Shown here: positions 2,145 to 63,947 of the stretch, piece by piece
How positions within the stretch are numbered: position 1 is the first letter of the stretch
How the letters are laid out: each line of letters opens with the position of its first letter
From: Oryzomonas japonica
GTDB taxonomy: Bacteria; Desulfobacterota; Desulfuromonadia; Geobacterales; Pseudopelobacteraceae
DNA: 64,000 nt
Assembly: GCF_008802365.1 (NCBI RefSeq)
Contig: NZ_VZQZ01000011.1
Coordinates: 129,501-193,500, forward strand
Direction: 5' to 3'
Translations under genes and position numbers: made by a program
The notes under the pieces: generated by a model
What the model was told of the DNA's origin: nothing
Databases searched by the model: none
Seen by the model: the letters and a program-made list of their open reading frames with translations, nothing else

Positions 2145-2246
2145 GTCACCATTGCAGTGGGCGGCAAGAACCGGGCAACTTAATCATTTCCGCGCTGTTG
2201 CTAATTTTGCGTCATGTGATATCTTAGTAAGCAAGGGGGTAATGCC

Positions 2247-2732: not shown

Positions 2733-2741
2733 TCTCGGTAT

Positions 2742-2818
2742 GCGCCCGTAGCTCAGCTGGATAGAGTCCCTGGCTTCGAACCAGGTTGTCGGGAGTTCGA
2801 ATCTCTCCGGGCGCGCCA
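2742..2818 (+). tRNA. tRNA-Arg (anticodon TCG)
   Basis: Cloverleaf folded by hand. Acceptor GCGCCCG/CGGGCGC, D-arm GCTC-AGCTGGATA-GAGT, anticodon stem CCTGG/CCAGG with loop CTTCGAA, T-arm GGGAG-TTCGAAT-CTCTC, discriminator G plus encoded CCA. Confidence 0.8.
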
Positions 2819-2828
2819 AACCTCATTG

Positions 2829-2867
2829 AATCTGAGTACTTCAGCTGGAGTGCTCAGATTCTTTTTT
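2829..2867 (+). terminator. rho-independent terminator after tRNA-Arg
   Basis: Inverted repeat AATCTGAG...CTCAGATT followed by CTTTTTTCC. Confidence 0.5.
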
Positions 2868-3269
2868 CCCGCCGTAGACTTTACGGCTCCCACCAGTGAC
2901 CGTAAGCTTCCCTGTCAAGTAGACAGATTTAAAGTAGAGTTTCTGGTGTAGTTTTCCATGTACCTGAGAACATGCCTTTCGTCATCAATTGAAAACCATG
3001 CAAGTTTCACAAAGTAGCCCTAACATCGTCCGTCATATATGGAAGTTTTGTCAGATATGATAGATTCCGCTGCTGATCTTCTCTTCTCTCTGCACCCTCT
3101 CTTTTCATTTATCCCTGCACAATCAAGCCGTTGCACTCTTAGTACCCACAGATATTCATTGGCGTGTTAGTTGCTAATTAATTGATGCGGATTTCAAATA
3201 ACGAATGCTCCACAACGGGCGTTTCATTAAGCCCAATTATCAACCATTAACCAGGTAAAGGAGGATGTC

Positions 3270-4202
3270 ATGAAACAAATTGCTTTTGCAATGTACCTGA
3301 TCTCGGCGGTAGTCGTCTTTGCACTAAACGGTTGCGGTGGAGGAGGTGGCGGAAGCGGTACCCCAACTGTTTCTGGGGTCGCAGCTAGCGGAGCGCCTAT
3401 GAGCGGCACTGTATTTATGAAGGATTCTGCAAATAATCCCGAAATGAGTACTACGATCAATGCACAAAGCGGAGCATTCTCGTTCAATGTTAGCGGTAAA
3501 ACGGCCCCTTACATGCTAAGAGCTGGTACGCTCTATTCAATGAGTAGCGGTCCGGGAACGGCCAACATTAACCCTCTGTCGCACCTGATGGTGGCGGATG
3601 CGGCAGGATTTGCCAATATGTCATCCATGAATGCCTTCTATAATAATCCGAATGGAACGCAAATGGGCACCATTTCGGGAAACATCGGTACAGCCAGGCA
3701 ACATATGCAACAAAAGATGGCGCCATTGCTAAGCGCATATGGCGTTGCCAATGTAGACCCAATTACGGGATCTATAACAATTGGTTTGGGGCTTGATAGA
3801 ATGTTTGATGACGTGAAAATGACTATCGATGCCGGCGGCAACGTATCCATGATGTATGTGAATGGTACTAGCGTATATACGGGATCAATGGCAAGTATGT
3901 CGTCCGGCACTATGATGGCAGGAAATATTGTCACGCCGGCTACAACGCCGACGGCTAGCGGCATAACCATAACGCCTAGTGTCGCCAAAATGCAGATAAA
4001 CGGACCAACACAACAGTTTACGGCCAATATTTCCGTGACGTGGTCGGTGATAACTCCGAACGGTGGCACTATTACACCCGGCGGACTTTATACGGGACCC
4101 GCTAGGCAGGGGATGTTTCTCGTTAAAGCTACCAGTACTGTTGACCCGACTAAATCATCGACAGCTATTGTTCTGATGGGAAGCGGTGGAATGATGATGT
4201 AG
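3270..4202 (+). CDS. lipoprotein with C-terminal Ig-like (Big_2-type) domain, hypothetical
   Basis: Lipobox ALNGC followed by a GGGGGGSG linker. Met/Ser/Gly-rich body. C-terminal segment ITITPSVAKMQINGPTQQFTANISV...TPGGLYTGPA resembles bacterial Ig-like group-2 domains. RBS AGGAGG 7 nt upstream. Confidence 0.65.
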   Translation: MKQIAFAMYLISAVVVFALNGCGGGGGGSGTPTVSGVAASGAPMSGTVFMKDSANNPEMSTTINAQSGAFSFNVSGKTAPYMLRAGTLYSMSSGPGTANINPLSHLMVADAAGFANMSSMNAFYNNPNGTQMGTISGNIGTARQHMQQKMAPLLSAYGVANVDPITGSITIGLGLDRMFDDVKMTIDAGGNVSMMYVNGTSVYTGSMASMSSGTMMAGNIVTPATTPTASGITITPSVAKMQINGPTQQFTANISVTWSVITPNGGTITPGGLYTGPARQGMFLVKATSTVDPTKSSTAIVLMGSGGMMM

Positions 4203-4236
4203 TAACCATCCAACGCATGACTGTTGGGAGAAGCAC

Positions 4237-5862
4237 ATGTCTGTGATGATCGGCCCGGCTAAAAGAAATCTGCGGCGAGTGATGCCGCGACTCATGCAAA
4301 TTATGCGTGTGCTTGCCCGGCACAAGTTCCTGGGCGCCCTACGCGGCAAGGGACATTGGCCTCCACCGAAAGAGGTCCGGGAAACCTTCGAGGAACTGGG
4401 ACTCACCTTTCTTAAATTCGGACAAGTACTCGCGATGCGACGAGATCTGCTGCCGGACGCCTACATCGATGAGTTGGAATTGCTGCATGACCAGTTGCCG
4501 GCGATGAGCACGAGCACAATGCGCGCCAGAATTGAAATAGAACTTGGCGCGCCATGGACGAAATTGTTCGCCTCGTTCAATGAAACGCCGATAGCTTCTG
4601 CCACCATTGCCCAGGTGCATGAAGCGACACTGCTGGACGGGCGTCACGTGGCCGTGAAGGTGCAGCGGCGCGGCCTTGAAAAGATGATCTCCACGGATAT
4701 CGCGGCAATGACCTATCTGGTAGCATTGGTGGAAAGTTTCTTTCCTCGTTTAATTGCGCTCGACCTCCCTGTTCTGGTGCAAGAATTTGCCAAAAGTCTG
4801 AAAAGGGAAACCGATTTTCAACGTGAAGCGCGCTCCATAGTGCTCTTTCGCACTGCGCTGGCGGATATTCCTGACCTCTGGATTCCGGATGTCGTGTCTG
4901 AGTTCTCGACCGGAAACATTCTCACAATGGAGTTCTCTGCTGGTGAACGTGTAGATATCTACGCAAAACAACAACCTGAAGCTATGCCGCGGGCGATCAA
5001 CACCCTGGTTAGGCTTATGCTACAAACTATTTTCGAAGAGGGATTGTTCCACGCAGATCCGCATCCCGGCAATGTGTTGGTTCTGCCCGATGGACGGCTC
5101 TCCTTGCTTGATTTCGGGATGACGGGTGAGCTTGACGAGTCGATGCGCGAATCGCTGACGCTCCTGCTCGAAGCGGTCGTGAAAGGCGATGCCCGGGCCG
5201 CCAAAGAGGCGTATCTTGAAATGGCACCGCAGGGGAGCGAAAAGGTCGATCGTGCGGAGTTGTTGATGGACATAAAGGCCGTACTCACTGAAATTCACAG
5301 GAGCGATCTTGCTGTTGTTTCGGTCGGGGAAGTGTTCGATTCGCTGCTGCGCGCCGGGAGCCGAAACGGAGTCCACAATCCCCCCGAGTTTTTCCTGCTG
5401 ACGCGTGCCTTCGTCATCCTGGAATCGTTGATACGTCAACTCGATCCGGGCCATAACTACATGGGATCGTTTCGAGAAGAAATCAAACGCCTGACCGCGC
5501 AGCATTTTTCACTGGGGCGGATAAAGGAAAAAACAAGCAAGCTGGCGCGCGAAATGGAACGCTTGATGAATGATGCGCCCGGTGACACGCGACGTGTCCT
5601 CCGACGTATCGCTGAAGGCAACCTGGGCCGCTTTCAGGCTCCGGCTATTGAAGCATTAGGGGGTCGTGTCAGCCGCAACCTAGAACTGCTCACCAGCGCC
5701 ATCATTTCTGCGGCGCTTATGGTCGCTGGAGCGTTGATGGTGAGTACACCACCGGACGCCGGATTGCATCATAATGCCGGCGAAGTAATGGTTACCGCCG
5801 GAATCTTTAGCACGATCTTTATTGCTGTCAAAGCAATACGTCGCGACCGTGGCCGACGCTGA
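4237..5862 (+). CDS. ubiB: ABC1/UbiB-family atypical protein kinase (ubiquinone-biosynthesis-type)
   Basis: 541 aa. aarF/ABC1 signature FNETPIASATIAQVHEATLLDGRHVAVKVQRRG, catalytic HADPHPGNVLV and two C-terminal TM helices. Confidence 0.75.
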   Translation: MSVMIGPAKRNLRRVMPRLMQIMRVLARHKFLGALRGKGHWPPPKEVRETFEELGLTFLKFGQVLAMRRDLLPDAYIDELELLHDQLPAMSTSTMRARIEIELGAPWTKLFASFNETPIASATIAQVHEATLLDGRHVAVKVQRRGLEKMISTDIAAMTYLVALVESFFPRLIALDLPVLVQEFAKSLKRETDFQREARSIVLFRTALADIPDLWIPDVVSEFSTGNILTMEFSAGERVDIYAKQQPEAMPRAINTLVRLMLQTIFEEGLFHADPHPGNVLVLPDGRLSLLDFGMTGELDESMRESLTLLLEAVVKGDARAAKEAYLEMAPQGSEKVDRAELLMDIKAVLTEIHRSDLAVVSVGEVFDSLLRAGSRNGVHNPPEFFLLTRAFVILESLIRQLDPGHNYMGSFREEIKRLTAQHFSLGRIKEKTSKLAREMERLMNDAPGDTRRVLRRIAEGNLGRFQAPAIEALGGRVSRNLELLTSAIISAALMVAGALMVSTPPDAGLHHNAGEVMVTAGIFSTIFIAVKAIRRDRGRR

Positions 5863-9866: not shown

Positions 9867-10592
9867 ATGCTCACACGAAGACAGTTTATTGCGGCTGGCG
9901 CCGGATTATTGTTGGTGCCGCACAGCTCGCTGGCAAAGGCGCTCATGAAGCACACCGCTTCCACAGGAATCAGCGACCTCGTCGAGAACGGCGACATCCC
10001 AAAGGACATCGCCGTTGGTCCGAACATAACCGCCGAGCAGTTCATTGCCGCCCAACGCGACGAAAAGGCCCTCGAAAGCCTGGTGGGCGGCCTTGTTGAG
10101 CGCAAGATAAAGGGTCAGCCTTTGTTCAACGAGGGGAAGATCATTCTCTATAACACACACTTCAAGGAACGGTACCTCTTCAAGTTCAGAAACGGCTACG
10201 GGGAGTATGATCCCAAGATCCTCGGCTCGCTCAACTATTTCATGCGCTGCAATTATGACAACAAATACACTGATATGGACATTGCAACCATAGAGATGAT
10301 CAACTACGTTGCACAACTCCTCGGGGTCAAGGAGATCTACATCAACTCAGCCTACCGGACGCCGGAATACAACGCCATACTCGCCAGGAAAAGCGAGAAC
10401 GTGGCGCGCAACTCGTTCCACATGCAGGGCAAGGCGGTGGACTACTCCATACCTGGCGTGCCGATCAGCAAAGTGTGCCAGTATGCCCAGCTGGCGCGCA
10501 ACTATTTCGGCTACGGCGGCGTCGGCTATTATCCGCGGCAGAACTTCGTGCATAACGACAGCGGACCGCTTCGCAACTGGGCGAAGAAGTAG
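9867..10592 (+). CDS. Tat-secreted YcbK/DUF882 family peptidase M15A-like protein
   Basis: Tat motif MLTRRQFIAAGAGLLLVPHSSLA. YRTPEYNAILARKSENVARNSFHMQGKAVDYSIPGVPI...GVGYYPRQNFVHNDSGPLRNW matches the YcbK family. Confidence 0.8.
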   Translation: MLTRRQFIAAGAGLLLVPHSSLAKALMKHTASTGISDLVENGDIPKDIAVGPNITAEQFIAAQRDEKALESLVGGLVERKIKGQPLFNEGKIILYNTHFKERYLFKFRNGYGEYDPKILGSLNYFMRCNYDNKYTDMDIATIEMINYVAQLLGVKEIYINSAYRTPEYNAILARKSENVARNSFHMQGKAVDYSIPGVPISKVCQYAQLARNYFGYGGVGYYPRQNFVHNDSGPLRNWAKK

Positions 10593-10785
10593 CCGTCACA
10601 CTCCAGAGCAGATCATTTGCAAATAACTATCTAATATTTACTGATGTTCCCCACTACTCCTTTTCATCTCTCGTGGCACGTCACTATAGGGTAAAGGTAT
10701 TTGTACGGTTACTGATGCCGGTATCATTGTTTCAGGCCCATAGCCCACAAGTTGCACACGTCAAAACCGGCGGGAGGTTTAACCC

Positions 10786-11250
10786 ATGATTTTTCAGAGT
10801 GGCACAAAGGAGACCGTCTTGGCCAACCACACCGAGTTCCCGGTGGGAGAACTGCTTCTCCGTACCTATGCAAAGCCGAGCGATACGAACGCGAATGGAG
10901 ATATCTTCGGGGGATGGATCATGTCGCAGATGGACATCGCCGGCGGCATGTTGGCAATAGAGATCACCGGCGGCCGGGCCGTGACTATTGCGGTGGACGC
11001 GATGAAATTCATCAAACCGGTAAAAACCGGCGATATTGTCTGTTGCTTCGGCAAAGTTACAAGGATCGGGAACACCTCCATCACCATCAGGCTGGAGGTT
11101 TGGGTTAAGCCGAGCCTGAGGGAAGCACCGACCGACAAGGAAAACGCATTGTACTTGGTCACGGAAGCTTCATACACCTATGTGGCCGTTGACCAGGAAG
11201 GGCGCAAACGGCAGTTCCAGAAACCGGCTGCTCGCCAACACGAGCAATAG
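10786..11250 (+). CDS. acyl-CoA thioester hydrolase (YciA/hotdog family)
   Basis: ANGDIFGGWIMSQMDIAGG...AVTIAVDAMKFIKPVKTGDIV is a hotdog-fold thioesterase signature. Confidence 0.75.
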   Translation: MIFQSGTKETVLANHTEFPVGELLLRTYAKPSDTNANGDIFGGWIMSQMDIAGGMLAIEITGGRAVTIAVDAMKFIKPVKTGDIVCCFGKVTRIGNTSITIRLEVWVKPSLREAPTDKENALYLVTEASYTYVAVDQEGRKRQFQKPAARQHEQ

Positions 11251-41916: not shown

Positions 41917-43260
41917 CTACCTCCCCGCCACAACAGCGCTGAGGATATCCTCGGTCAGGCGCAGTCCTCCGCGGAAACCGGTGTAGCCCCGGTCGAGCAC
42001 GGCACGGTTGGACACCGGGAAACTGACCGACAGGTGGGGAGCGCCGATGGTCTGGGCCAGTTCCCGCTCCAAAGAGCTGCCGATGACAAAGGCCGGGCTG
42101 AAGGCGTTATGGTACTTTTGGCCACCGGCCGGCGGCCATTTCTTCTGCAGGTGTTCGATGGCGCGGCTGCCGTCGGTCTCGAAGACCAGCGTGCTCTTGT
42201 AGCGCGACTCCAGAACGTTCAATTGGCTGGTCAGCCGGTCCTTTTCCTCGTCCTCCAAGGGGTCGGTGCAGACGGTCAGTTCGGGGAGCCATCCCAGGTC
42301 GTCGGCCAGGAACTTGGTCAGGGCCGTGGCATAGTTGGCGTCGCCCACGACGATGGCGTAACGTTGCAGGTCCAGGTCGTTGAGGCAGTCGGTCAGCGGT
42401 TCGAGGAAGCGGAAGTAGGCCTGTTTCTCCCGGCTGAGGACCGTGTTGACCTTCTGCCGGGAAATCTTCAGGGCCTTGCCCACGCTCCGCAGGAAGGCTT
42501 CCGAGGCGCTGGCGCCCACCGGCAACGACAGGCTCAGAAAGGGTGTGCCGTGGATATCTTCGAACAGCTTGGCAGCCTCAACCCCGTAGACGTGGGACAC
42601 GACGATGTTCAATGAGGCCGCCCCGGCCCCGCGGATGTTCTCTATGGTGTCTTCCGAGGTAAAGAACGAGTTGACGGTCAGCCCCAGGGCCTCCAGCAGA
42701 CGGCGCACCCCTTCCAGGTTGCCGCGCCAGAACGGGTCTGCCGACGGCACGACGCCCCACAGGTTGACGCTGTTTTTGACCTTTGCCGCGCCGCGCTCCA
42801 CGAATTCCCGGAACAGGGACTGCAAGGCCAGATCGTATCCCCAGTAGGAGTTTCCCTTGAATCCCCCGGTCTCGGCGCCGATGATCGGAACATTCTGATC
42901 GCGGAAATCGGAAACCACCGTCTTGATGTCGTCGCCGATCACCTCGGTGACGCAGCCGGTCAAGATGGCGTAGATCTGGCCGTCCATGACCTTGAGGGTA
43001 CTTTCGACCTGTTCCCTGAGGCGCGCATCGCCGCCGAAGACCACCTCCCGTTCCTGGACGTTGGAACTGGGGATGGAGAGGGGCCCGCAATACCCCCCCA
43101 CCTGGAGACCCGAGCCGCCGTTCTGGGCCCAGGCGAAGTTGCCGGCGCAGCCCGAGGCGGAATGAAGGATGGGGATGCCTCCGGGAAGGGCCGCGATGGT
43201 TGCCGCAGCACCGCCAAGTGCGCACACGTAACGGGGCCGTTCGATAAAATTGTCGCTCAT
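41917..43260 (-). CDS. nitrogenase component-1-type oxidoreductase, beta (NifK/NifN/MarK-like) subunit
   Basis: 447 aa. Nitrogenase component-1 fold (ALGGAAATIAALPGGIPILHSASGCAGNF; ILTGCVTEVIGDDI). Start overlaps the upstream stop by 4 nt. Confidence 0.8.
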   Translation of the reverse strand: MSDNFIERPRYVCALGGAAATIAALPGGIPILHSASGCAGNFAWAQNGGSGLQVGGYCGPLSIPSSNVQEREVVFGGDARLREQVESTLKVMDGQIYAILTGCVTEVIGDDIKTVVSDFRDQNVPIIGAETGGFKGNSYWGYDLALQSLFREFVERGAAKVKNSVNLWGVVPSADPFWRGNLEGVRRLLEALGLTVNSFFTSEDTIENIRGAGAASLNIVVSHVYGVEAAKLFEDIHGTPFLSLSLPVGASASEAFLRSVGKALKISRQKVNTVLSREKQAYFRFLEPLTDCLNDLDLQRYAIVVGDANYATALTKFLADDLGWLPELTVCTDPLEDEEKDRLTSQLNVLESRYKSTLVFETDGSRAIEHLQKKWPPAGGQKYHNAFSPAFVIGSSLERELAQTIGAPHLSVSFPVSNRAVLDRGYTGFRGGLRLTEDILSAVVAGR

Positions 43261-44777
43261 GCCGCTGTACCTCCACGTTGATCGATATGGGAAAAGGGGT
43301 CCGCTGTGTACCAGGCATCGCTGTAGGGAAGCCGGAGGTTTTCGCCCAGCTTGCGGTTATAGATCGGATTTTTGAGCTGGCGGTACAGGCGGCGGGCGAC
43401 CTCGTAGACCCCCCGGTAACCGATGTAAGCCAGTCCGGTGTTGTAGATGACATGGGTGGGAATGCCCAGTTTGGCGGCGGTGCCGTTGCCGTTGGCATGC
43501 CCCAGAAACAGGTCCGGCTTGATCCTTTTCAGCAGGTTGGCCTCCTCGAAGGGCTGTACGTTGGCGATATCGATCACATAATCGTCCTTGCTGGAATTGG
43601 CCAGTTTCCGATATTCCCCCTCGGCGAATTCGTCGTGGTGGAAGGAGCGGATGCCAGAGACCGTGAGCCCCAGCTCTTCCAGCAGACGGGCCGTTGCCAG
43701 GGCGCGGAACTCGCCGGCGCTGATGAAGACCCGCTTCCCCTCGAACAAGGGGCGGAAGACCTCAAGCGCCTCCCGCAGTTCCCGTTCCTCATGCTCTATG
43801 ATCCGCTCCGCCTTCTCCTCTTCGCCGAAACGGGCCGCCACGTCCCGCAGCCAGAGGCCGGTGTTCTCGATGCCGATCGGCATGTGGCGGATCAGGGAGG
43901 GGACGCCGAAACGCTCCTCCAGATAGCCGAGGAAATAGTCGTCATGGGTCGGGCAGGTGCTGACCGACAGTGCCGCCTGGGTGGCCTTGACCATGTTCTC
44001 GGGATGGGCGAAGACCGGGAAGACGTTGACATCCAGACCGAGGGTGGTCAGGAGGCGTTCCAGCTCCACCTCGTCGACACGCCCCATGGAGGACACGTTC
44101 ATAAGGTTGACGGTGCGGGGCAGCCGCTCCAGCCCCTTGAAGGGCGCCAGGCCGTCCTCGGTCGGGGCCTGTTCACCTTCCCGAAGCAGGGTACGGCCGA
44201 TGCCGTGGTAGACCGCATCGTAGGCCGTGGCCCAGATCTTGGTTTTGAAACCTTCACAATGCACCGGTAGCAGTTTGGCGGTCACCTGGGGCTGGACCCG
44301 TTGCACCACGCCGTCGATATCGTCGCCGATGATGCCGGGTACACAGCCCGCCACCACGGTGATGCTGAAGGGGCGGTACCGCCGGTCGGCCTCGATGATG
44401 GCCTTTTCCAGTTTTTCTTCGCCGCCGGTGATGACATCGGTTTCATCCATGGCCGTGGAGAGCCAGACGCCGTCCTTGGGGCGTCCCCAGCGCGCATTGC
44501 TGCCGAAGCGCACATTGGTGTTCTGGGAGTGGGTGCAGCCGCCGCAGCCGATGGCGCTGTGCAGCAACACCACATTGTCCGGAAGGGTGTTGAGCATGGC
44601 CAGGGCCGGCAGGATCAGGCAGATGGACCCTTGGGTGAAGGAGCGTTCGCCGTCGTCGTGCAGGCAGGACTTCTTGCCCTTGGCGCCGGCCATTTCGCAG
44701 ATCGTGCCGCCGTGGGCGATGCAGGCCTTGAGGCGGTCTTCACGCTTTGGGGGGGATTTCAGGTCGATAGAGCTCAT
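43257..44777 (-). CDS. nitrogenase component-1-type oxidoreductase, alpha (NifD/NifE/MarD-like) subunit
   Basis: 506 aa from MSSIDLKSPP.... CIAHGGTICEMAGAK; VLLHSAIGCGGCTHSQ; VVAGCVPGIIGDDI; HCEGF. These are hallmarks of the NifD/NifE family. Confidence 0.8.
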   Translation of the reverse strand: MSSIDLKSPPKREDRLKACIAHGGTICEMAGAKGKKSCLHDDGERSFTQGSICLILPALAMLNTLPDNVVLLHSAIGCGGCTHSQNTNVRFGSNARWGRPKDGVWLSTAMDETDVITGGEEKLEKAIIEADRRYRPFSITVVAGCVPGIIGDDIDGVVQRVQPQVTAKLLPVHCEGFKTKIWATAYDAVYHGIGRTLLREGEQAPTEDGLAPFKGLERLPRTVNLMNVSSMGRVDEVELERLLTTLGLDVNVFPVFAHPENMVKATQAALSVSTCPTHDDYFLGYLEERFGVPSLIRHMPIGIENTGLWLRDVAARFGEEEKAERIIEHEERELREALEVFRPLFEGKRVFISAGEFRALATARLLEELGLTVSGIRSFHHDEFAEGEYRKLANSSKDDYVIDIANVQPFEEANLLKRIKPDLFLGHANGNGTAAKLGIPTHVIYNTGLAYIGYRGVYEVARRLYRQLKNPIYNRKLGENLRLPYSDAWYTADPFSHIDQRGGTAA

Positions 44778-44836
44778 GGTTGTTCCTTTCTCCGTTTTTC
44801 CAGATGTTTTCATCTCGTTCCCGCTCAGGTATGGCG

Positions 44837-46198
44837 TTACAGCGTTTTTCTGATCTTTGCCGGAATCCCCCGCGAGCAGGGGATATTGGTGGAGCAATGA
44901 CCACAAGAGCCGTAATTCCATTCCTTGAAATGTTCCTTGTTGCCGTGGGTCTCGCACCTTCCGGGCAACTTGCCGGCATCGGTGACGGCCCCGGTGGGGC
45001 AACGCCTGATACAGGCATCGCAGCTTCCGTCAAAGGCATACAGACAGTAGCCGTAGACCTCCGTGTAGTTCCTTTCCGTCGGGGTCAGGTGCAATGTGGT
45101 GACGACACTGCACAGCCGCCCCAGGCATCCCTTTTCGGAGATGAAATTCTGGTGCAGGCCGAAGGTGCCGAGTCCGGCGGCGAAAGCGGCATGCCGCTCC
45201 GACCAGAACGGCCGCCAGTTATCGGAATCGTAGCGGGGGTCGATATTGGGCGCGACAGCCTTGCCACCATGCTGCGCGGCAAAACGGATCAAGGCCCGGC
45301 GGACCACGTTGAGAAACTTTGAGCCGTTCCATTTGCCGGACGAAAATTCGATGGCGGAATAACGCTGCTCCCTGGAGTAGTTGGCCGATATATGCTCCGT
45401 GAACGGCAGAAAGACGCTGATGACCGAACGGGCTCCCGGCAGCCATTCATAGGGGAGCCGGTGCCCCGGGCCGACCACCTCCGGGTCCTGAAAACGCTCG
45501 AACAACGAGTCATGGGCGGAAGCGATGCCGATCAGCGGTTCAGCCCAGATCGGCGGGTTTGTCCCTTCCGGGAGCGCGTTGCGGAAATCGGTCTTCACCA
45601 GATGAGCCACAAAATGCAACAGTTCATCGTACGGGACATCGGGCCGAACCTTTCCGTCAATCACATTTTTCGGCACGGGATCGGGCTGGAAGAACAAGGG
45701 GTTGATCCCGTTCTTGATCTCCCGCCCCCTGGTCTTCTGCTCGGGGTTGGGATGGGGCGATCCCTTGACGATCAGAGGGACGTCAAAGGGTTTTCTGAAG
45801 CCGGGGGGCGACCCCTTGGTGAAGTCATAGGCGGTCCAGATATAAAGTTGTTCGTAGATATTTTCCAGCAACTCCTCGGCCAGTTCCGTCGCGCTTTGCC
45901 CATCGTTCAGGCGGGTGGCCCCCTCTTCCGGGAACAGTTCTCCCTCTATGAAGTAGTAGACCTCCTGGCGGATGGGGATGCTGGCGTTGCGCAGGGTGGC
46001 GGTCCGGTCCGAGGTTCGCACGGCAAGTACCTTGCGCCGGTCGGGCCTGTATTCATAAAGGTTCGCCTGGAGGATGTAGTCTTTCAGGCATTCGAATACC
46101 GACTGGCGATTGAGGATATTCGGGTACGGTTCGCCCCACTTGGGGATCTCGTTGACAAACAGCGAAGTGCTTTCGGATGATAAATTTTTGCCGGACAT
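44837..46198 (-). CDS. QueG/reductive-dehalogenase-like 4Fe-4S protein (paralogue of 26105..26944 with long N-terminal extension)
   Basis: WSERHAAFAAGLGTFGLHQNFISEKGCLGRLCSVVTTLHL...CDACIRRCPTGAV...CGHCSTNIPC. Start chosen at MSGKNLSS. Confidence 0.6.
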   Translation of the reverse strand: MSGKNLSSESTSLFVNEIPKWGEPYPNILNRQSVFECLKDYILQANLYEYRPDRRKVLAVRTSDRTATLRNASIPIRQEVYYFIEGELFPEEGATRLNDGQSATELAEELLENIYEQLYIWTAYDFTKGSPPGFRKPFDVPLIVKGSPHPNPEQKTRGREIKNGINPLFFQPDPVPKNVIDGKVRPDVPYDELLHFVAHLVKTDFRNALPEGTNPPIWAEPLIGIASAHDSLFERFQDPEVVGPGHRLPYEWLPGARSVISVFLPFTEHISANYSREQRYSAIEFSSGKWNGSKFLNVVRRALIRFAAQHGGKAVAPNIDPRYDSDNWRPFWSERHAAFAAGLGTFGLHQNFISEKGCLGRLCSVVTTLHLTPTERNYTEVYGYCLYAFDGSCDACIRRCPTGAVTDAGKLPGRCETHGNKEHFKEWNYGSCGHCSTNIPCSRGIPAKIRKTL

Positions 46199-46208
46199 GA
46201 CGGTCTCC

Positions 46209-46973
46209 TTACCGTTTCCCTGTCCAGTACAGGGCTCTGCGCTGGATCGCATCGAAAATTTCCATCATCAGGATGATGAAGATGGACATGAAGATCATGC
46301 CTGCCAGGACACGGGGATAGTCGGAGAAGTCCGAATAATACTGAATGAAATACCCCATGCCGGATTTGGCCCCGAACATCTCCGCAACCGTCAGCAGGAT
46401 GAAGCTGAAGACCAGCGCCATCCCGGCCCCGGCAAAGATATGGGGGAGCGCCCCCGGAAAGACCACCAGTCGGAACAGGCGGTTGCCATGGAGCCCCAAC
46501 GCCCTGGCGTTATCCAGATAACGTTCCTCCAGCAGCACTACCCCATGGATGGTCCCCATCAGGATGGGCCAGAAGGCGCCCACAAAAACGATGAATGCCG
46601 ACGAGAGCCAGAACGTGGGCAGTACGGAGATGGCGTAGGGGATCAGCATCGTGGGTGGGATCGGGCTGATGCCCCTGAAGAGGGGCATCAGCGTGGTCCG
46701 CACGGCCTGGTGATAGCCGACGAAAAGCCCTAGGACGACACCCAGGACCAAAGCCAGGAAATAACTGGGCAGCAGCAGGCCGAAGGAGCTCAACAGGCCT
46801 TCGAGGAGCTTGGGGAGCGCCTCGGCAAATGCCGGGAGAATCCTGGAAAGCCCGGGGAACAGGACCGGTTCCAGCCATCCCGTGATATCGGTAGCCAGTT
46901 CGAAGATGGCTACGAAGATCAGGATGATGATGACTGTCCCGGTGTATTTTTTAACGTTTGTGGTCAGTAACAC
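46209..46973 (-). CDS. ABC transporter permease, NitT/TauT (sulfonate/nitrate/taurine) family
   Basis: SsuC/TauC-type permease with EAA-like loop (LEERYLDNARALGLHGNRLFRLVVFPGALP). Confidence 0.8.
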   Translation of the reverse strand: MLLTTNVKKYTGTVIIILIFVAIFELATDITGWLEPVLFPGLSRILPAFAEALPKLLEGLLSSFGLLLPSYFLALVLGVVLGLFVGYHQAVRTTLMPLFRGISPIPPTMLIPYAISVLPTFWLSSAFIVFVGAFWPILMGTIHGVVLLEERYLDNARALGLHGNRLFRLVVFPGALPHIFAGAGMALVFSFILLTVAEMFGAKSGMGYFIQYYSDFSDYPRVLAGMIFMSIFIILMMEIFDAIQRRALYWTGKR

Positions 46974-50063: not shown

Positions 50064-50881
50064 TGGGTACTACCTCCTTGTAACGTAAATAGTCTGCCGG
50101 AATTGGCCGGGCAGCAATTGGGCGTGCAGACCGCCTTGGAGAACAGCTCTTGCAGGACAGGGTCCATGGGACCAATCAACAGGCGATCCAGCGCATCACA
50201 GTAAATCTCTTCATAGACATGGTTTGCCAGGAAATCACCCGGCATAGCGGCATCCTGGAGGCCGAGCCCTTGCCAGATGCGGAGCATGCGCCAATAGTCA
50301 GGATTGGGGTCGAAATGGATATTCGGGACGGTTGCACCTTGCGATAGCTTCTGCAGCGTCGCCTGCCTGACTACCGGTGATTGTTGCTGCAACGTGCGGT
50401 GGGCCCGGATCAGGGCGGCGGTCAAGCCGATGATGGAGCCCTTTTCGGCCACCGGCCGGTTTGCCGGTACGAGCACGACAATCCCCCTGCGCTCCTGCTC
50501 ACCCTGGTGGTTTTCGTCCAGGCTTGCCAGCGGCCCCGTGTCGGTGGGGGTCCCGCCTCCGGCAATGATGCGAAATCCCTTTCCTTTGGCTATCTGCCCC
50601 AGCGCCTCTCCGACCATGAAGGCCCCGGCGTCGATGGAGCCCGCTTCAAGGGCGGCCAAGCCGCTGGCGGTATCCTGAAATTTGACCAGCTTGACCTGCA
50701 ATCCTTCTTCGCGAAAATGCCCGTGTGTTGCGGCAACGCGGCACAGGGCGCTGCCGGGGTGGTCCAGATAGCCCAAGCGGAAAAATTTTCCCGCCGCATG
50801 GCACGGCATGACGCCGGAGACCAGCAACAGTACCGCCATGAGAGACGGTGCCGCTATCCGGTGGACATGCCCGAAATTCAT
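50060..50881 (-). CDS. ABC transporter substrate-binding protein (NMT1-like, third, shorter)
   Basis: Signal peptide then KFFRLGYLDHPGSALCRVAA... Confidence 0.65.
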   Translation of the reverse strand: MNFGHVHRIAAPSLMAVLLLVSGVMPCHAAGKFFRLGYLDHPGSALCRVAATHGHFREEGLQVKLVKFQDTASGLAALEAGSIDAGAFMVGEALGQIAKGKGFRIIAGGGTPTDTGPLASLDENHQGEQERRGIVVLVPANRPVAEKGSIIGLTAALIRAHRTLQQQSPVVRQATLQKLSQGATVPNIHFDPNPDYWRMLRIWQGLGLQDAAMPGDFLANHVYEEIYCDALDRLLIGPMDPVLQELFSKAVCTPNCCPANSGRLFTLQGGSTQ

Positions 50882-51693
50882 ATCCCATCCCCCTGGGATG
50901 CGACTATCTGACCGGCATCCAGCTCGGAGAGGATGTTTTCGTACAGCACCGTGACCAGCCGGTCCCGCAGCGTCTGGAAGGTCTGGTTGTGGTACAGTTC
51001 CTGGCGGATGCGGGGACGGGGTAGGTCCACCTCGAATACTCCCTTTATGGTACCGGGATTGACACCCAGCACAACGATGCGGTTGGCCAGCAGGATGGCC
51101 TCCTCCACGTCGTGGGTAACGAAGAAGACGGTCTTGCGCTCGTCCTGCCGCTGCTGCCAGAGCTGGAGAAGCAGGTCCTGGAGCCGAGCGCGGGTGATGG
51201 CGTCCAGCGCGCCGAAGGGCTCATCCATCAGGAGCACCGGCGCGTTGATGGCAAAGGCCCGCGCAATGGCCGCCCGCTGGCGCATCCCGCCGGAAAGCAG
51301 GCCGGGGAGCTTGTCATAGGCATCCGCCAGGCCGACCATTTCCAGGTAGCCGGCCGCCGTCTCCCGGTACTCATCTTTCTTCTTTCCGGGGAAGGCCTGT
51401 TCCAGGGCCAGGACGATATTCTGCCCGGCGGTCATCCAGGGAAACAGGGAGTAATCCTGAAAGACCACGCCCCGGTCCAGGCCGGGACCGCTGATCTGCT
51501 TCCCGTCCAGGGTTATACCGCCTGACGACGGAAAGGAAAGGCCCGCCAGAAGCCGCAAGAGCGTGCTCTTGCCACAGCCGGACGGCCCCAGCAGGCAGAC
51601 GAAATCTCCCGGTTCGGCGGTAAAGGTGATGTCCTGTAGGACCCGTTGGTCACCGTAGGAATAATTGACGTTGGACAATGTTACTTCATACAT
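50878..51693 (-). CDS. ABC transporter ATP-binding protein (SsuB/TauB-like)
   Basis: Walker A LLGPSGCGKST, signature LSGGMRQR and Walker B LLMDEPF. Start at MYEVTLSNV. Confidence 0.85.
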   Translation of the reverse strand: MYEVTLSNVNYSYGDQRVLQDITFTAEPGDFVCLLGPSGCGKSTLLRLLAGLSFPSSGGITLDGKQISGPGLDRGVVFQDYSLFPWMTAGQNIVLALEQAFPGKKKDEYRETAAGYLEMVGLADAYDKLPGLLSGGMRQRAAIARAFAINAPVLLMDEPFGALDAITRARLQDLLLQLWQQRQDERKTVFFVTHDVEEAILLANRIVVLGVNPGTIKGVFEVDLPRPRIRQELYHNQTFQTLRDRLVTVLYENILSELDAGQIVASQGDGI

Positions 51694-51703
51694 GGAAATA
51701 TCC

Positions 51704-52360
51704 TCACAGATCCCGTTTATCGGCCAGCCGCTTGTAGTACGAGTGACTGGTGTACAGCGCGCCGACCGGGTTATGGGCCAGCACGCGGTCCTTGACCACA
51801 AGGTAGGTTACCGGCGCTTCGGAATATTTTATGAACATGGAATCGTGGCCGACACACAGGCCGACGATTATGTTCAAATCGGTTTTTTCCCTGGCCAGGA
51901 TGCGGGCCTGAAGCACCGGGTTGCAGGCCGATTCGTGCTGCCCTTTGTTGATCTTGAACTCTTCAGGAATACCCAATTCGGTCTTGTCCACCGAACCGAC
52001 CTTGCAGGCCACGGTATAGCTCTGGATTCCCTGGGCATCGAGAAACTTGATGAAGTTTTTGGTCTCGTTGATCAGGCCGACGCAGGTGGCGATGCCGACC
52101 TTCTTTGCCTTGATGCGGCGCGCAAAGGCGGCCACTTCCTCCACGCGGGTCAACCTGCCGTAGTAGGTCCCTTCGACCTCTGCGGCGGCGTTGGAAATTT
52201 TCGAAACCAACGGATCTTCGCGATAAATGCGGTTGACCTCCTCAATTTCCTGTTTATCCTCGGCCTCGGTCAGGCAGAAGGCGGGAAAAACGGAGGTCCG
52301 CGAGTTGCAGTTGATGGTGGCGCAGTCGCCACAGGTCAGTACGTTCTTTTTCTTGGCCAT
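51704..52360 (-). CDS. Cys-rich metal-binding protein, DUF1847-like
   Basis: LTCGDCATINCNSRTSVFPAFCLTEAE...GLCVGHDSMF is a DUF1847-type Cys pattern. 218 aa. Confidence 0.5.
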   Translation of the reverse strand: MAKKKNVLTCGDCATINCNSRTSVFPAFCLTEAEDKQEIEEVNRIYREDPLVSKISNAAAEVEGTYYGRLTRVEEVAAFARRIKAKKVGIATCVGLINETKNFIKFLDAQGIQSYTVACKVGSVDKTELGIPEEFKINKGQHESACNPVLQARILAREKTDLNIIVGLCVGHDSMFIKYSEAPVTYLVVKDRVLAHNPVGALYTSHSYYKRLADKRDL

Positions 52361-52524: not shown

Positions 52525-53400
52525 TTAGATGCTTGCCCCGCTGCTGCGGACCTCCCCGGCCTCAACGGCCAGGATCTGATCGGACCAGTCGGCGGCCCAC
52601 TTGCGCAGCGCCTCCGCGCTCAGCGGCTCCGGCACCCTGGATTCCGTGTGGTTGGCGATCCGGTCGGCAAGCTTCTTATAGACCTGGGCCTGCTCGGAAT
52701 CGGGGAAGGCCTCGATGGTGGTCTTACCCTGCAACTCGGCCTGGGTGACGGTGATCGAACGAGGTACATACTCCATCACCTGGGTGTTGGTGCGTGCCAC
52801 GAAGTCGTCGATGATATGTTTGGCATAGGGTGCATTGACGGAGTTGGCGATCACGCCGCCCAAAAGTGCCCCACCGTTGTTGGAGTACTTCTTGATGCCG
52901 GTGAACAGATTGTTTGCGGCGTAAATGGCCATAAAGTCCGACGACGACACCGTGAAAACGTGCTCGGCGATCCCTTCCCGGATCGGTACGGCAAAGCCGC
53001 CGCAGACCACGTCCCCCAGGACATCGTAGATTACGTAATCCAGGTCCAGTTCCTCGAAAACCCGTTGCTGTTTGAGCAGCTCAATGGCGGTGATAATGCC
53101 GCGACCAGCGCAGCCGACCCCCGGCGCGGGGCCGCCGGCCTCCACGCAGTGGACGCCGTTGAAACCGGAGAAGACCACCTCGCTGGCCTTGGCGCTCTTC
53201 TTTTCCCGCAGGGTGTCAAGGATAGTGGGTATATAGTTGCCCCCCCGCAGGGTGACGGTGGAGTCGTTCTTGGGGTCGCAGCCGACCTGCATGACCTTGT
53301 AGCCTGCTACCGACAGGGCGGCGGTGATATTGGAGGTGGTGGTGGATTTACCGATGCCTCCCTTGCCATAGATCGCTATCTGTTTCGGTTTTTTTGCCAT
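52525..53400 (-). CDS. nitrogenase Fe-protein-like ATPase (NifH/BchL/CfbC/MarH family)
   Basis: P-loop [15 protein letters not shown], switch [10 protein letters not shown] and both 4Fe-4S ligand cysteines (GVGCAGRG; DVVCGGFA) are conserved. 291 aa. Confidence 0.85.
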
Positions 53401-53412: not shown

Positions 53413-53757
53413 TTATTTGATGTAGGTAAAACGCTTCGACGCCCGCAATGTTTCCAGGGCCTCGTCAATGGGGCCACCCATGGTGAAGGCCAGAATCCGG
53501 TGGCCGATGAGGGCGTCGATGGCGCCGGGGCCGACCTGGGCGGCCACGACCCCTCGGCAGTCGGAAATGAGTTGTGCCGCCTGGTCCAGAACATCGTCGT
53601 CGTGCTGCTGCCCCCCGCAGACCGGGGTATTTTTCCGCAGTTCCAGGAATTCATGCCCTTCGTCGTGCAGCCGGTAGATGCGGAAGGCCTGCGCCCTGCC
53701 GAAATGCTCGTTTATTGTCGTCCCGTCGCTGCTTGCCACGGCGATCTTTACATCCAT
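53413..53757 (-). CDS. dinitrogenase FeMo-cofactor-binding-like domain protein (NifX/NafY/NifB-C-terminal family)
   Basis: MDVKIAVASSDGTTINEHFGRAQAFRIY...VVAAQVGPGAIDALIGHRILAF matches the NifX/NafY-type domain. RBS GAGGAG upstream. Confidence 0.7.
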   Translation of the reverse strand: MDVKIAVASSDGTTINEHFGRAQAFRIYRLHDEGHEFLELRKNTPVCGGQQHDDDVLDQAAQLISDCRGVVAAQVGPGAIDALIGHRILAFTMGGPIDEALETLRASKRFTYIK

Positions 53758-61105: not shown

Positions 61106-61181
61106 GGGCACATAGCTTAGCTGGTAGAGCAGCCGACTCTTAATCGGCAGGTCGTCGGTTCGATCCCGACTGTGCCCACCA
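61106..61181 (+). tRNA. tRNA-Lys (anticodon CTT)
   Basis: Acceptor GGGCACA/TGTGCCC, D-arm GCTT-AGCTGGTA-GAGC, anticodon stem GCCGA/TCGGC with loop CTCTTAA, T-arm GTCGG-TTCGATC-CCGAC, discriminator A plus CCA. Confidence 0.85.
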
Positions 61182-61232: not shown

Positions 61233-62105
61233 TCAAATCGCAGCCCCATCGGTAACCAGGCCGTTTTCAAGAGCATAGATCCGGTCTCCCCACGTTCGCG
61301 CCCATGCCCGCAGTTCTTCGGGCTGCATCGGCACAGACGGGCCCGGCTGGGACGCAGCCTCGTCAACGATCTGATTGGCCAGTCTGCGGTAGAAATAGGA
61401 CTGGTTGGAGAGGGGCGACGCCTCGATGACGGTCTTGCCGTACAGTTCGCACTGTCTGACCATCAGGGAGCGGGGGATGCGCCCCATGGTGCGGGTGCGG
61501 GTCTGAACGGCAAAATCGGCGATAAACGATTCCTCGAACGAACTGCTGATGCTGTTGGGGATCAGTCCGCCCACCGGTACCGGCACATTCGATTCGCCAT
61601 AACGGTCCAACATCTTGAAGATGGCGTTGGCGGCATGCAGCGACATGAAATCGGCCGTTGTCACCACAAACACCCGCCGGACCCCGATCTGCTGGACCGG
61701 GGTATAGAAGCTGGAGCAGGTGCTGTCGCCGGAGATGTCGTAGAGCACGAAGTCAGGAGCGACGGCCTCGAACAGGTCGATCCTCTTCAGTTCTGCAAGC
61801 GCGCGGGCTATCTCGGACGATCCGCATTGGCCCGAGCCGAACGGATCACCCAACTCGACGCAGGTGACCCCCTTGAACCCCTTGTGGGCAACGGCATCAA
61901 CAGAGATCTCGCCCCGTTCCCGCAAAAGATCGAACACCGTCGGGATGGGATCGCCGTTGTTGAGGAGGCTGCACGAGTCGCCTTTCGGGTCACATCCAAC
62001 CTGCAGGACGCTGAAACCGGCTTCTGCCAGGGCGGCGCTGAGGTTGGAGGTCAAGGTGGATTTGCCCACTCCCCCCTTGCCGTATAATGCGATGTGTTCT
62101 GTCAT
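61233..62105 (-). CDS. divergent NifH-like P-loop ATPase lacking both canonical 4Fe-4S ligand cysteines
   Basis: P-loop LYGKGGVGKSTLTSN and switch GCDPKGDS are retained. The CAGRG motif is replaced by GSGQCGSS and VVCGGF by DSTCSSF. The C-terminus (RAWARTWGDRIYALENGLV) is collinear with the 52525..53400 NifH-like protein. Confidence 0.75.
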   Translation of the reverse strand: MTEHIALYGKGGVGKSTLTSNLSAALAEAGFSVLQVGCDPKGDSCSLLNNGDPIPTVFDLLRERGEISVDAVAHKGFKGVTCVELGDPFGSGQCGSSEIARALAELKRIDLFEAVAPDFVLYDISGDSTCSSFYTPVQQIGVRRVFVVTTADFMSLHAANAIFKMLDRYGESNVPVPVGGLIPNSISSSFEESFIADFAVQTRTRTMGRIPRSLMVRQCELYGKTVIEASPLSNQSYFYRRLANQIVDEAASQPGPSVPMQPEELRAWARTWGDRIYALENGLVTDGAAI

Positions 62106-62287
62106 GGGTCGCCTCGTTTCCCATCCGGCAATCCGTCGCGGGACTCCGAACGTTTGAAAAGCAAGAGGCCGGGGCTGCCCATGGAAGGGACATGAACCCC
62201 GGCCTCCGGTTTATCCGGTCAGCGCGGAAAAGATGATTGATCGTTGTTCAAAGTTGCGAACGGAACCCCGTCGCCGCCGTTTGAGGA

Positions 62288-62470
62288 TTAAATCCCGCCG
62301 CCGTCCACATATCCGGTTTTGTTGAGCCGGATCTTCTCGCTCTTGTCTACCTGGATCACCCGGCCGTCCTGCACCACCAGGGTCACCGTGCCGAAACGGA
62401 TCGAGCTCAGCGCCTCACGCACGACCTGCTCCAGATCCCGGCTCCATGGTTCAGGGGGCGGGGCGGCCAT
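62288..62470 (-). CDS. YezD/DUF2292 family small protein
   Basis: FGTVTLVVQDGRVIQVDKSEKIRL matches the YezD signature. Start overlaps the cysK stop. Confidence 0.65.
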   Translation of the reverse strand: MAAPPPEPWSRDLEQVVREALSSIRFGTVTLVVQDGRVIQVDKSEKIRLNKTGYVDGGGI

Positions 62471-63423
62471 CAGATGCCCTCGAACAGCGGCGTGGAGAGG
62501 TAGCGTTCAGCCGCGTCGGGAAGGATGGCGACAATGGTCTTGCCGGCAAATTCGTCCAGTTTGGCGAGTCGCACCGCGGCGGCAGCCGCGGCACCGCTGG
62601 AGATACCCACCAGGAGGCCTTCTTCGCGGGACAGCCGCTTGGCGAATTCGATGGCTTCGTTGCTCTCCACCGGTTCGACCCGGTCGATTACCTTGAGGTC
62701 AAGGGTGTCGGGGATGAAACCGGCGCCGATGCCCTGGATCTTGTGGGGAGCCGGTTTAATTGCCTGGCCGGCCAAAAACTGGGTGATGACCGGGCTCTCC
62801 TTGGGCTCCACCGCCACGGAGATGATCTTCTTCCCCTTGGTGTTCTTGATGTACCGGGAGATGCCGGTGATGGTGCCGCCGGTGCCGACCCCCGCCACGA
62901 CCACGTCCACTGCGCCGTCCGTGTCGTTCCAGATCTCAGGGCCGGTGGTCTTCTCGTGGATCTCCGGGTTGGCCGGGTTCTTGAACTGCTGGGGGATGAA
63001 GTATTTCTTGGGATCGGAGGCGGCGATCTCCTCGGCCTTGGCAATGGCCCCTTTCATCCCTTCGGCACCCGGGGTGAGGATCAGGTTGGCACCCAGGGCG
63101 GCCAATACCCGGCGGCGTTCGATGCTCATGGTCTCGGGCATGGTCAGGGTCAGTTTGTAGCCCCGGGCCGCAGCCACGTAGGCCAAAGCGATGCCGGTGT
63201 TGCCGCTGGTCGGCTCGATGATCTCCACGCCCGGCTTGAGCACCCCGCGCTTCTCGGCATCCCAGATCAGGTTGGCCCCGATGCGGCACTTGACCGAGTA
63301 GGCCGGGTTGCGCCCTTCGACCTTCACCAGGACCGTGGCCTTGGCCCCGTCAACGACGTGGTTCAGTTTGATCAGCGGTGTGTTACCGATGGATTGGGAG
63401 TTGTCTGCGTAGATGGTGCTCAT
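62470..63423 (-). CDS. cysK: cysteine synthase A (O-acetylserine sulfhydrylase)
   Basis: PLP Lys motif (NPAYSVKCR), [10 protein letters not shown] and [10 protein letters not shown]. Confidence 0.9.
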
Positions 63424-63485: not shown

Positions 63486-63947
63486 TCAGATGCTGAAATC
63501 CAGCACGTTTGCCCGCTTGCTCCGCTCGGTCTCGCTTCGCTCAAGCATGTCCGCTAGGGTCAGGCTGTCCAGCACCTGGGCCAGGGCCTTGTTGACATCC
63601 ACCATCACCAGCCGGATGCCGCAGATTGCCTCGTCGTCGCATTCGTCGCACTTGGCGTAGTTGGTCTCGCTCAAGCACTGCACCGGCGCCAAGTCACCCT
63701 CAAGGATCCGTACCACGCTGCCCAGGGTAATCTTGGCAGGCGGGGAGGCCAGGTAGTAGCCGCCCCCCTTGCCGATCCTGCTCTGGAGGATGCCCCCCTT
63801 GCGCAGGGACAGGAGGATGAACTCCAGAAACTTCTTGGGGATGTTCCCGGCCTTGGCCAGGTCCGAAATCAATACCGGCTGGGAGGTGGGCTGCCCGGCC
63901 AGATGATAGAGCGCCTTAAGCGCGTATTTGGTCTTTTTCGATATCAT
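63486..63947 (-). CDS. Rrf2-family transcriptional regulator (CymR/IscR-like)
   Basis: N-terminal Rrf2 HTH (SKKTKYALKALYHLAGQ...ISDLAKAGNIPKKFLEFILLSLRKGGIL). C-terminal Cys cluster (CDECDDEAIC) suggests Fe-S sensing. Confidence 0.8.
   Translation of the reverse strand: MISKKTKYALKALYHLAGQPTSQPVLISDLAKAGNIPKKFLEFILLSLRKGGILQSRIGKGGGYYLASPPAKITLGSVVRILEGDLAPVQCLSETNYAKCDECDDEAICGIRLVMVDVNKALAQVLDSLTLADMLERSETERSKRANVLDFSI

Follow-up and report, generated by a model that had tools for sequence, protein, structure and literature searches.

Within a 64,000-nucleotide stretch of Oryzomonas japonica contig NZ_VZQZ01000011.1 (the window), we analyzed a minus-strand gene at 61233-62105, referred to here as H2, which encodes a divergent NifH-like protein. 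Our analysis shows that H2 is a paralog derived from the lineage of MarH, the Fe protein of methylthio-alkane reductase. We propose, as a tentative reading to which we give somewhat less than an even chance, that this functional paralog closes a sulfur-starvation unit, docks the cysteine synthase CysK through its C-terminal tail and is unlikely to be a primary electron donor. Docking is proposed because of synteny, the isoleucine-ending tails shared by co-encoded proteins, identities between these tails and known CysK ligands, and the presence of a CysK-type sulfhydrylase at the locus; a primary donor role seems unlikely because the cluster and docking face of H2 is remodeled and a canonical MarH lies beside the Mar-type D and K genes of the window. 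Our best inference is that H2 is a nucleotide-binding and probably still cluster-binding adaptor docked on CysK, rather than the main electron donor. The features of H2 on which the analysis relies are the following:

61233-62105, minus strand: H2, divergent MarH-lineage NifH-like protein of 290 amino acids (open reading frame (ORF), Pfam, PDB match, AlphaFold2/Foldseek)
62058-62081, minus strand: P-loop GKGGVGKS, with Lys10 and Lys15 kept (alignment, codons)
61824-61826, minus strand: codon TGC of Cys94, equivalent to Cys97 of NifH and Cys97 of MarH, cluster ligand kept (alignments)
61716-61718, minus strand: codon TGC of Cys130, equivalent to Cys132 of NifH and Cys133 of MarH, cluster ligand kept (alignments)
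61815-61817, minus strand: codon of Ser97, where NifH and MarH have Arg100 (the docking and ADP-ribosylation arginine), lost in H2
61449-61451, minus strand: codon of Cys219, a near-invariant, family-specific cysteine that is Ala in NifH and MarH (homolog alignment)
61236-61304, minus strand: C-terminal WxxxW helix and invariant tail ...ENGLVTDGAAI, with terminal Ile290

H2 is an intact gene that retains both cluster ligands

The H2 ORF starts with ATG, ends with TGA and is preceded by a GAGG ribosome-binding site, and a Pfam scan of its product returned Fer4_NifH (E 4e-63), in agreement with an earlier reading made from the sequence only, which had described a NifH-family ORF of 290 amino acids at this position. 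Membership in NifH proper was judged by the TIGR01287 equivalog model (NCBIfam nifH; cutoff 394.35 bits), on which H2 scores 235.3 bits; the cutoffs of the CfbC (226 versus 402 bits) and BchL (157 versus 345 bits) models are likewise far missed. The sequence-only reading also described a preserved P-loop and switch regions and a C-terminus collinear with that of the NifH-like protein encoded at 52525-53400. Both descriptions hold: H2 has an intact P-loop, Switch I (CDPKGDS) and Switch II (DISGDSTC), with Asp39, Asp43, Asp123 and Asp127 present, and alignment of the two proteins bears out the collinearity.

The central claim of that reading, the loss of both [4Fe-4S] cysteines, is wrong. Alignment of H2 with Azotobacter vinelandii NifH and the MarH-like protein of the window, gap-free around both cysteines, places Cys94 and Cys130 in the invariant columns that hold Cys97 and Cys132 of A. 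vinelandii NifH, and an HMMER alignment with Rhodospirillum rubrum MarH (9fmg_D) likewise pairs them with the MarH ligands. The two strings on which the claim had been based, GSGQCGSS and STCSSF, each include the cysteine in question. What has changed in H2 are the flanks (CAGRG to CGSSE, and CGGF to CSSF, so that the Gly-Gly after the second cysteine has become Ser-Ser), together with the equivalents of Arg100 (Ser97) and Arg140 (Gln138). The corollary that the protein cannot hold the cluster in the canonical way loses its premise, as both ligands and every ATPase motif are present. Judging from these residues, H2 can probably still hold the inter-subunit [4Fe-4S] cluster; since both cysteines, both P-loop lysines and the Switch I and Switch II aspartates are kept, it probably forms a nucleotide-binding, cluster-bridged dimer.

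A homolog search recovered 533 homologs, nearly all of about 290 amino acids, in Geobacter, Oryzomonas and other Desulfuromonadales, and a scan of reference genomes gave 29 loci (designated by L numbers), which are the basis of our synteny and intactness counts. Every full-length H2 ortholog at these loci (27/27) is an intact ORF of 283-293 amino acids, and the ratio of nonsynonymous to synonymous substitution rates (dN/dS) of H2 is 0.10-0.18 (Nei-Gojobori, unsaturated pairs). In one genome pair, the ratio is 0.118 for H2, 0.071 for cysK, 0.055 for MarH, 0.100 for the neighboring Rrf2 gene and 0.246 for the DUF2292 gene, so that H2 lies near Rrf2 and below DUF2292. H2 is a functional gene under purifying selection, and the suggestion that it might be a decaying duplicate is refuted.

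H2 belongs to a distinct MarH-derived family that loses catalytic residues

The best PDB sequence match of H2 is R. rubrum MarH (9fmg_D, 249 bits), with NifH at about 160 bits. An AlphaFold2 model of H2 (mean predicted local distance difference test score (pLDDT) 87.7) was matched by Foldseek to MarH with a TM-score of 0.86-0.90 and 42% identity, and in a neighbor-joining tree the H2 family forms a separate clade, sister to MarH. MarH (PDB 9FMG, a Group IV-C nitrogenase-like (NFL) Fe protein) and H2 have in common the P-loop, both switch regions, the two cluster cysteines, a WxxxW helix followed by a terminal aliphatic residue, and a gene neighborhood related to sulfur limitation.

Nevertheless, sequence comparison indicates that H2 is not a MarH ortholog, as it scores 249 bits (42% identity) against R. 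rubrum MarH versus 487 bits for the MarH of the window and falls in its own clade. H2 is approximately 42-44% identical to MarH, whereas true MarH orthologs are at least 79% identical to each other; it lacks the equivalents of Arg100 and Arg140, its family shows unconstrained cluster loops and Switch II, and it is encoded after cysK and DUF2292 rather than with D and K subunits. With NifH, H2 shares the fold, the deviant Walker A motif, the switch regions and the two inter-subunit cluster cysteines, but it falls below the equivalog cutoff, lacks the CAGRG motif and Arg100, has no adjacent nifDK and carries a C-terminal isoleucine tail that is absent from canonical Fe proteins.

Two other identities were rejected: MarB is a NifB-type radical-SAM maturase, and therefore H2 is not MarB; and a sulfur-sparing MarH isoform does not fit the six Cys and six Met of H2 versus four and four in MarH, a difference with which the family means agree.

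The catalytic residues have had different fates across the family. In a basal member every canonical residue is still present, the equivalent of Arg100 among them. In the close clade of H2, both cysteines are present in 40/41 homologs, and Lys10, Lys15 and the switch aspartates are kept while Arg100 is lost. In a large derived clade of the same synteny, Cys94, Cys130 or both are gone, and frequently Lys15 has become Thr and Asp39 has become Ser or Gly. Of the homologs beyond the close clade, 9/79 have both cysteines and 35/79 have neither, and most Cys-less homologs there have no compensating cysteine nearby. Cys219, on the other hand, is conserved in 41/41 close-clade and 71/79 other homologs, and Cys45 is often gained as well. 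An exhaustive profile search resolved a core family of four clusters at 50% identity followed by a graded series of remoter relatives, from which 61 single-domain representatives were classified by the presence of a W..W...G..I tail:

Tail-bearing class, 23 representatives: terminal Ile in 23, both Cys in 7, Lys15 in 10, Arg100 in 4
Tail-less class (canonical Fe proteins), 38 representatives: terminal Ile in 3, both Cys in 36, Lys15 in 38, Arg100 in 31

A cluster-less NifH-like protein of the kind first ascribed to H2 thus does occur, though among its relatives and not in H2 itself. The proposal that went with it, of a paralog serving as regulator, adaptor or maturation factor without electron-donor function, gains support at the family level, in that cluster-less orthologs with the same synteny occur in other Geobacteraceae, often without the Walker A lysine, and conservation across the family is lowest on the docking and cluster face; its cluster-less premise does not apply to the H2 of the window. 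The family resembles degenerate paralogs of the SIMIBI class of P-loop proteins (pseudo-ATPases acting as adaptors or regulators), which keep the fold and partner-binding elements after losing the Walker A lysines and catalytic ligands, although H2 itself keeps the complete catalytic set and the analogy fits its relatives.

One of the reference loci (L027) carries an H2-like gene (10001-10864) directly after orthologs of marD (79%) and marK (71%). Its product has the P-loop GGGGVGVS without either lysine and a single ligand cysteine, and keeps the tail DGASI; it is predicted to be a catalytically dead Fe-protein homolog inside a mar operon.

Constraint lies in the nucleotide pocket and the C-terminal tail

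We compared column-wise conservation in the H2 family and in MarH, by residue ranges of H2:

Residues 91-105 (cluster loop): H2 family 0.48, MarH 0.96
Residues 121-135 (Switch II and ligand): H2 family 0.65, MarH 1.00
Residues 136-150: H2 family 0.57, MarH 0.97
Residues 211-225: H2 family 0.94, MarH 0.95
Residues 226-240: H2 family 0.89, MarH 0.85
Last five residues: H2 family 0.96, MarH 0.53

The strongest constraint in the family falls on the adenine-pocket region (residues 211-240, which include the equivalents of the NifH adenine-pocket residues) and on the C-terminal WxxxW helix that ends in ...DGAAI. Since conservation of the docking face is low and that of the pocket and tail is high, the canonical docking and electron-transfer face is dispensable for the conserved function of the family, and what that function does require is the nucleotide pocket together with the C-terminal helix and tail. 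The relaxed docking face also argues against ATP-dependent electron transfer from H2 to MarDK.

The terminal isoleucine is present in all of the close homologs listed (120/120, of which 98 end in DGAAI), in 31/31 H2-family matches in the reference-genome loci and in 23/23 distant tail-bearing representatives. The tail-bearing class has its own set of invariants, namely E192, D197, F198, S213, R240, W268, W272, G282, G287 and I290. In the AlphaFold2 model, pLDDT drops to about 72 across the final 10 residues, where a short helix is predicted; the H2 tail may be flexible. Among MarH orthologs the last residue is Ile in 93/120 and Leu in 27/120; HMMER alignments to R. rubrum MarH end 10 residues short of its C-terminus. 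Structure 9FMG models 269-274 of the 297 MarH residues, which is consistent with a disordered MarH tail.

A possible CysK-docking tail in a sulfur-starvation unit

Three genes upstream of H2 bear on the function of the tail:

62288-62470, minus strand: small DUF2292 (YezD/OscA-like) protein ending in DGGGI, the conserved upstream neighbor of H2
62470-63423, minus strand: cysK, cysteine synthase A at equivalog level (TIGR01139, 469 bits versus a cutoff of 351; synteny)
63486-63947, minus strand: Rrf2-family regulator, closest to CymR, ending in DFSI

The synthase scores 277 bits on the cysM model, versus a cutoff of 394, which makes it CysK-type and not CysM-type. The order Rrf2-cysK-DUF2292-H2 is found in approximately 18 of the 29 loci; in most of the remainder, the sole difference is an inserted ATP-binding cassette (ABC) transporter. 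Distant tail-bearing relatives are likewise encoded just downstream of DUF2292, with cysK, Rrf2, a sulfate-binding protein or rhodaneses nearby, and D/K genes are absent within 8 kb of three of these relatives. Of the upstream neighbors of H2-like genes, DUF2292, a relative of the sulfur-starvation protein OscA, is conserved most consistently; the DUF2292 protein of the window is 98% identical to its Oryzomonas sagensis counterpart. Two loci (L011 and L014) have two tandem Rrf2-cysK-DUF2292 modules on one contig, with H2 and the methyltransferase gene after the first module only.

A C-terminal isoleucine is strictly conserved in all known CysK partners, namely CysE, CymR, CdiA-CT and EGL-9, and O-acetylserine dissociates the CysK-partner complex (PMC5562914; bioRxiv 10.1101/2024.09.19.614015). 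H2 has in common with these partners (CdiA-CT of Escherichia coli 536 and Caenorhabditis elegans EGL-9 included) the invariant terminal isoleucine, a Gly/Ala-rich and perhaps flexible tail, and an operon that encodes a CysK-type sulfhydrylase and a CymR-like Rrf2 protein.

Isoleucine tails recur among the proteins encoded around H2. In the related loci, Rrf2 proteins end in D[YF][SCN]I (19/19), DUF2292 proteins in DGSGI (22/22) and ABC ATPases in Ile (5/5; GEGI in L027 and L037, Y[SA]I in others), whereas the control genes rarely do so (methyltransferase 1/9, sulfhydrylase 1/5). A DUF2292 search covering close relatives, with Pseudomonas OscA outside its reach, gave a terminal Ile in 120/120 homologs and G[SG]GI in 118/120. 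CysK itself ends in ...LFEGI in 22/24 loci, and its C-terminus is shorter than that of E. coli CysK. Within the window, a terminal Ile is encoded by 6/23 genes of the sulfur region versus 0/33 elsewhere (p=0.003). One of them encodes an NMT1/taurine-type ABC ATPase (50878-51801, minus strand) with the terminus ...ASQGDGI.

Some of these termini match characterized CysK ligands. GDGI, the end of the ABC ATPase, is identical to the CysK-binding tail of enterobacterial CysE, and DFSI, the tail of the Rrf2 protein, is that of the Mycobacterium tuberculosis CysE peptide crystallized in CysK1 (PMC9547175). The Rrf2 tail is consistent with a co-repressor pair of the CymR-CysK type in a deltaproteobacterial lineage, and CysK may also gate organosulfur import through the CysE-like tail of the ABC ATPase. 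The strict terminal invariance of H2, together with isoleucine tails on unrelated co-encoded proteins, suggests a shared external receptor.

By analogy with the known partners, the isoleucine tail of H2 may insert into the active site of the co-encoded CysK, a possibility that we regard as real while holding it to be short of even. In such a mechanism, H2 would be expressed last in a sulfur-starvation unit comprising the CymR-like Rrf2 gene, cysK, the DUF2292/OscA-like gene and H2, and its free C-terminus would enter the CysK active site in the manner of the CysE, CymR and CdiA-CT tails. The complex so formed would respond to O-acetylserine and sulfide and would couple the cell's sulfur status to the nucleotide/redox switch of H2, and this coupling could extend to MarH, which bears a related tail.

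Several observations weigh against this proposal. H2, a candidate CysK ligand, is unrelated to any known CysK partner, and at its penultimate positions (GAA) it has no counterpart of the aromatic or hydrophobic residue to which CymR and some CysE peptides owe their high affinity. The CysE of Neisseria gonorrhoeae has a terminal Ile and yet forms no complex, so the residue is necessary and not sufficient. The H2 tail was inherited from MarH, in which 27/120 orthologs end in Leu, and therefore it may have a different, structural role, such as that of an inter-subunit latch; E192, D197, F198, S213 and R240 could form an intramolecular dock for the helix and tail. In addition, cysK is not adjacent in every locus, the short DUF2292 forms (53-56 amino acids) beside distant H2-like genes in L031 and L037 have no tail, and a Rosetta-stone search found no fusion of CysK with an H2-like domain.

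The long, high-scoring matches of that search are tandem NifH-NifH proteins, uninformative for the partner. Seven such proteins of 571-1081 amino acids were found (P0361, P0362, P0365, P0366, P0369, P0373 and P0376), and P0373 additionally carries a fused nitrogenase component-1 domain; these proteins are Fe-protein dimers joined covalently, belonging to a different NFL system.

A broader version of the CysK-docking proposal, which we consider rather unlikely, would make CysK, in these anaerobes, a sulfur-status hub for a set of sulfur-starvation proteins with CysE-mimicking isoleucine tails, comprising the CymR-like repressor, OscA/DUF2292, the ATPases of organosulfur ABC importers, MarH and the H2 family. 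O-acetylserine and sulfide levels would then directly gate organosulfur import and the C-S cleavage of the nitrogenase-like enzyme through competition for the CysK active site, and the H2 family would serve as a dedicated adaptor, its Fe-S cluster and ATPase chemistry progressively shed.

The sulfur locus and its Mar-type system

From 41050 to 63947 of the window, all genes lie on the minus strand and all are concerned with sulfur acquisition. From the high-coordinate end down, they encode the CymR-like Rrf2 protein, CysK, DUF2292, H2, an S-adenosylmethionine (SAM) methyltransferase and a rhodanese, followed by a homocysteine synthase (O-acetylhomoserine sulfhydrylase), an NMT1-type ABC transporter and a NifX-like protein, then the canonical Fe protein, DUF1847, further ABC transporter components and a 471-amino acid Fe-S protein, and finally the nitrogenase-like D and K subunits and an HPP protein. 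The setting given in the sequence-only reading was accurate: the other NifH-like copy is 7.8 kb away, a tRNA-Lys gene is close by and cysK lies upstream. Other features of the locus are:

61106-61181: tRNA-Lys
52525-53400, minus strand: true MarH ortholog, canonical Fe protein, ending in SGASI (9fmg_D 487 bits versus NifH 279)
41917-45002, minus strand: Mar-type NFL D and K subunits
62165-62207, minus strand: GC-rich 12-bp hairpin followed by UUGCUUUUC (U-run), in the 182-nucleotide DUF2292-H2 spacer

The canonical Fe protein scores 403.8 bits on TIGR01287. The D subunit has MarD as its best match and keeps three P-cluster cysteines, the Cys270 equivalent, Trp195 and probably His429; its real start is probably near 44813 (Met64). 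As the window contains a MarH-orthologous Fe protein and a MarD-like D subunit, it encodes a Mar-type Group IV nitrogenase-like system, to which H2 is an additional H-type gene. The nearest D/K genes are approximately 16 kb from H2 and have their own H gene, whereas H2 follows cysK and DUF2292.

The MarH ortholog is flanked by genes for a NifX-like (Nitro_FeMo-Co) protein (53413-53757, minus strand) and DUF1847 (51704-52360, minus strand). No NifB/MarB homolog was seen in the annotated parts of the window, and no NifEN among its genes, though the NifX-like and DUF1847 genes are present. The 471-amino acid ORF (44837-46252, minus strand), which occupies the gap from an ABC permease gene to the MarD-like gene, has a coding-like GC content at third codon positions (0.74) and carries a ferredoxin-like CxxCxxxCP motif at its C-terminus; it has no Pfam match and is absent from the 29 related loci. 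In L002, the contig that carries H2 and MarH also has a second, more divergent NFL H-D-K set (1898-5539), whose H protein is 63% identical to MarH and ends in EMAAI and whose D and K proteins are 31-36% identical to those of the window.

The spacer hairpin could conceivably act as an attenuator or as a partial terminator. The DUF2292-H2 spacer shows no consensus promoter or terminator, and the search for a regulatory RNA there gave a non-significant fold z-score (-1.95) and no Rfam family.

Alternative roles for H2

The alternative that survives best, albeit an unlikely one, is that H2 donates electrons, as an auxiliary or alternative Fe protein, to the Mar-type D/K proteins or to another NFL D/K set encoded elsewhere in the genome, under particular conditions of sulfur starvation. 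The clade of H2 keeps both ligand cysteines, Lys10, Lys15 and all four aspartates, H2 shares its sulfur neighborhood with marHDK-like genes, and Rhodopseudomonas palustris is known to have multiple Mar H and DK sets. Nevertheless, the docking face is the least conserved region and the Arg100 and Arg140 equivalents are lost in H2; the cluster ligands and Lys15 are missing from orthologs of identical synteny; and each nearby D/K set seen (in L002 and the window) has its own canonical H, while distant family members occur in loci without D/K genes within 8 kb. The L027 locus, in which an H2-like gene directly follows marD and marK, would favor a donor role by position, but the P-loop of that very protein is dead.

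NifH has maturation roles, in P-cluster maturation and cofactor insertion, that tolerate loss of the cluster. By analogy, H2 might be a maturation factor or chaperone for the Mar-type D/K proteins, which we think quite improbable. It would suit this role that cluster-less relatives stay under selection and that the window has NifX-like and DUF1847 genes with no NifB/MarB or NifEN seen. However, such roles depend on the very docking face that is left unconstrained in the H2 family, and the conserved gene partners are DUF2292 and cysK rather than D/K, with several relatives lacking D/K genes nearby.

We assign a similarly low probability to direct regulation of MarH or MarDK by H2, through inactive heterodimers or competition, with the helix and tail serving as an intra-dimer latch. 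The C-terminal extension of A. vinelandii NifH wraps around the partner subunit, and H2 and MarH have in common the dimer-interface and nucleotide-pocket residues and the WxxxW helix; the class-specific E192, D197, F198 and R240 could receive the tail. MarS, moreover, shows that methylthio-alkane reductase is regulated by proteins that occupy the MarH docking site. A latch is harder to reconcile with a MarH tail that is apparently unmodelled in 9FMG, with an invariant end that recurs as isoleucine tails on the Rrf2, DUF2292 and ABC ATPase proteins and suggests a shared external receptor, and with relatives that occur without MarH or D/K genes nearby.

Finally, that H2 is a cluster-less ATPase or a decaying duplicate has a negligible probability: the flanks of both cysteines are altered and truly cluster-less orthologs occur in other genomes, such as P0078 of Geobacter sp. 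SVR, but both codons are present, the cysteines are conserved in 40/41 close relatives, and the intact orthologs and low dN/dS refute it for this gene.

Significance

Methylthio-alkane reductase and related NFL enzymes were discovered very recently, and their post-translational regulation is largely unknown. The literature on Mar systems describes MarH, MarB, MarS and SalR (2026 NFL review; 2026 R. palustris preprint), and the review lists MarS as the sole post-translational regulator, with unknown signals. In a literature search that included both sources, we found no description of a divergent or cluster-less MarH/NifH paralog and no DUF2292-NifH or CysK-MarH link. The H2 family is an undescribed, distinct and degenerating sub-family of Fe-protein homologs, mostly of Geobacteraceae/Desulfuromonadales, in which the cluster ligands and the Walker A lysine are lost stepwise while the C-terminal peptide stays invariant. 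Its members are variously annotated as "nitrogenase iron protein NifH", "AAA family ATPase" or "P-loop NTPase", a likely annotation trap that our analysis corrects. If the tail is indeed a CysK ligand, it would provide a mechanism by which the sensing of O-acetylserine and sulfide is tied both to a nitrogenase-like enzyme and to the uptake of organosulfur compounds, and the list of "moonlighting" clients of CysK would grow.

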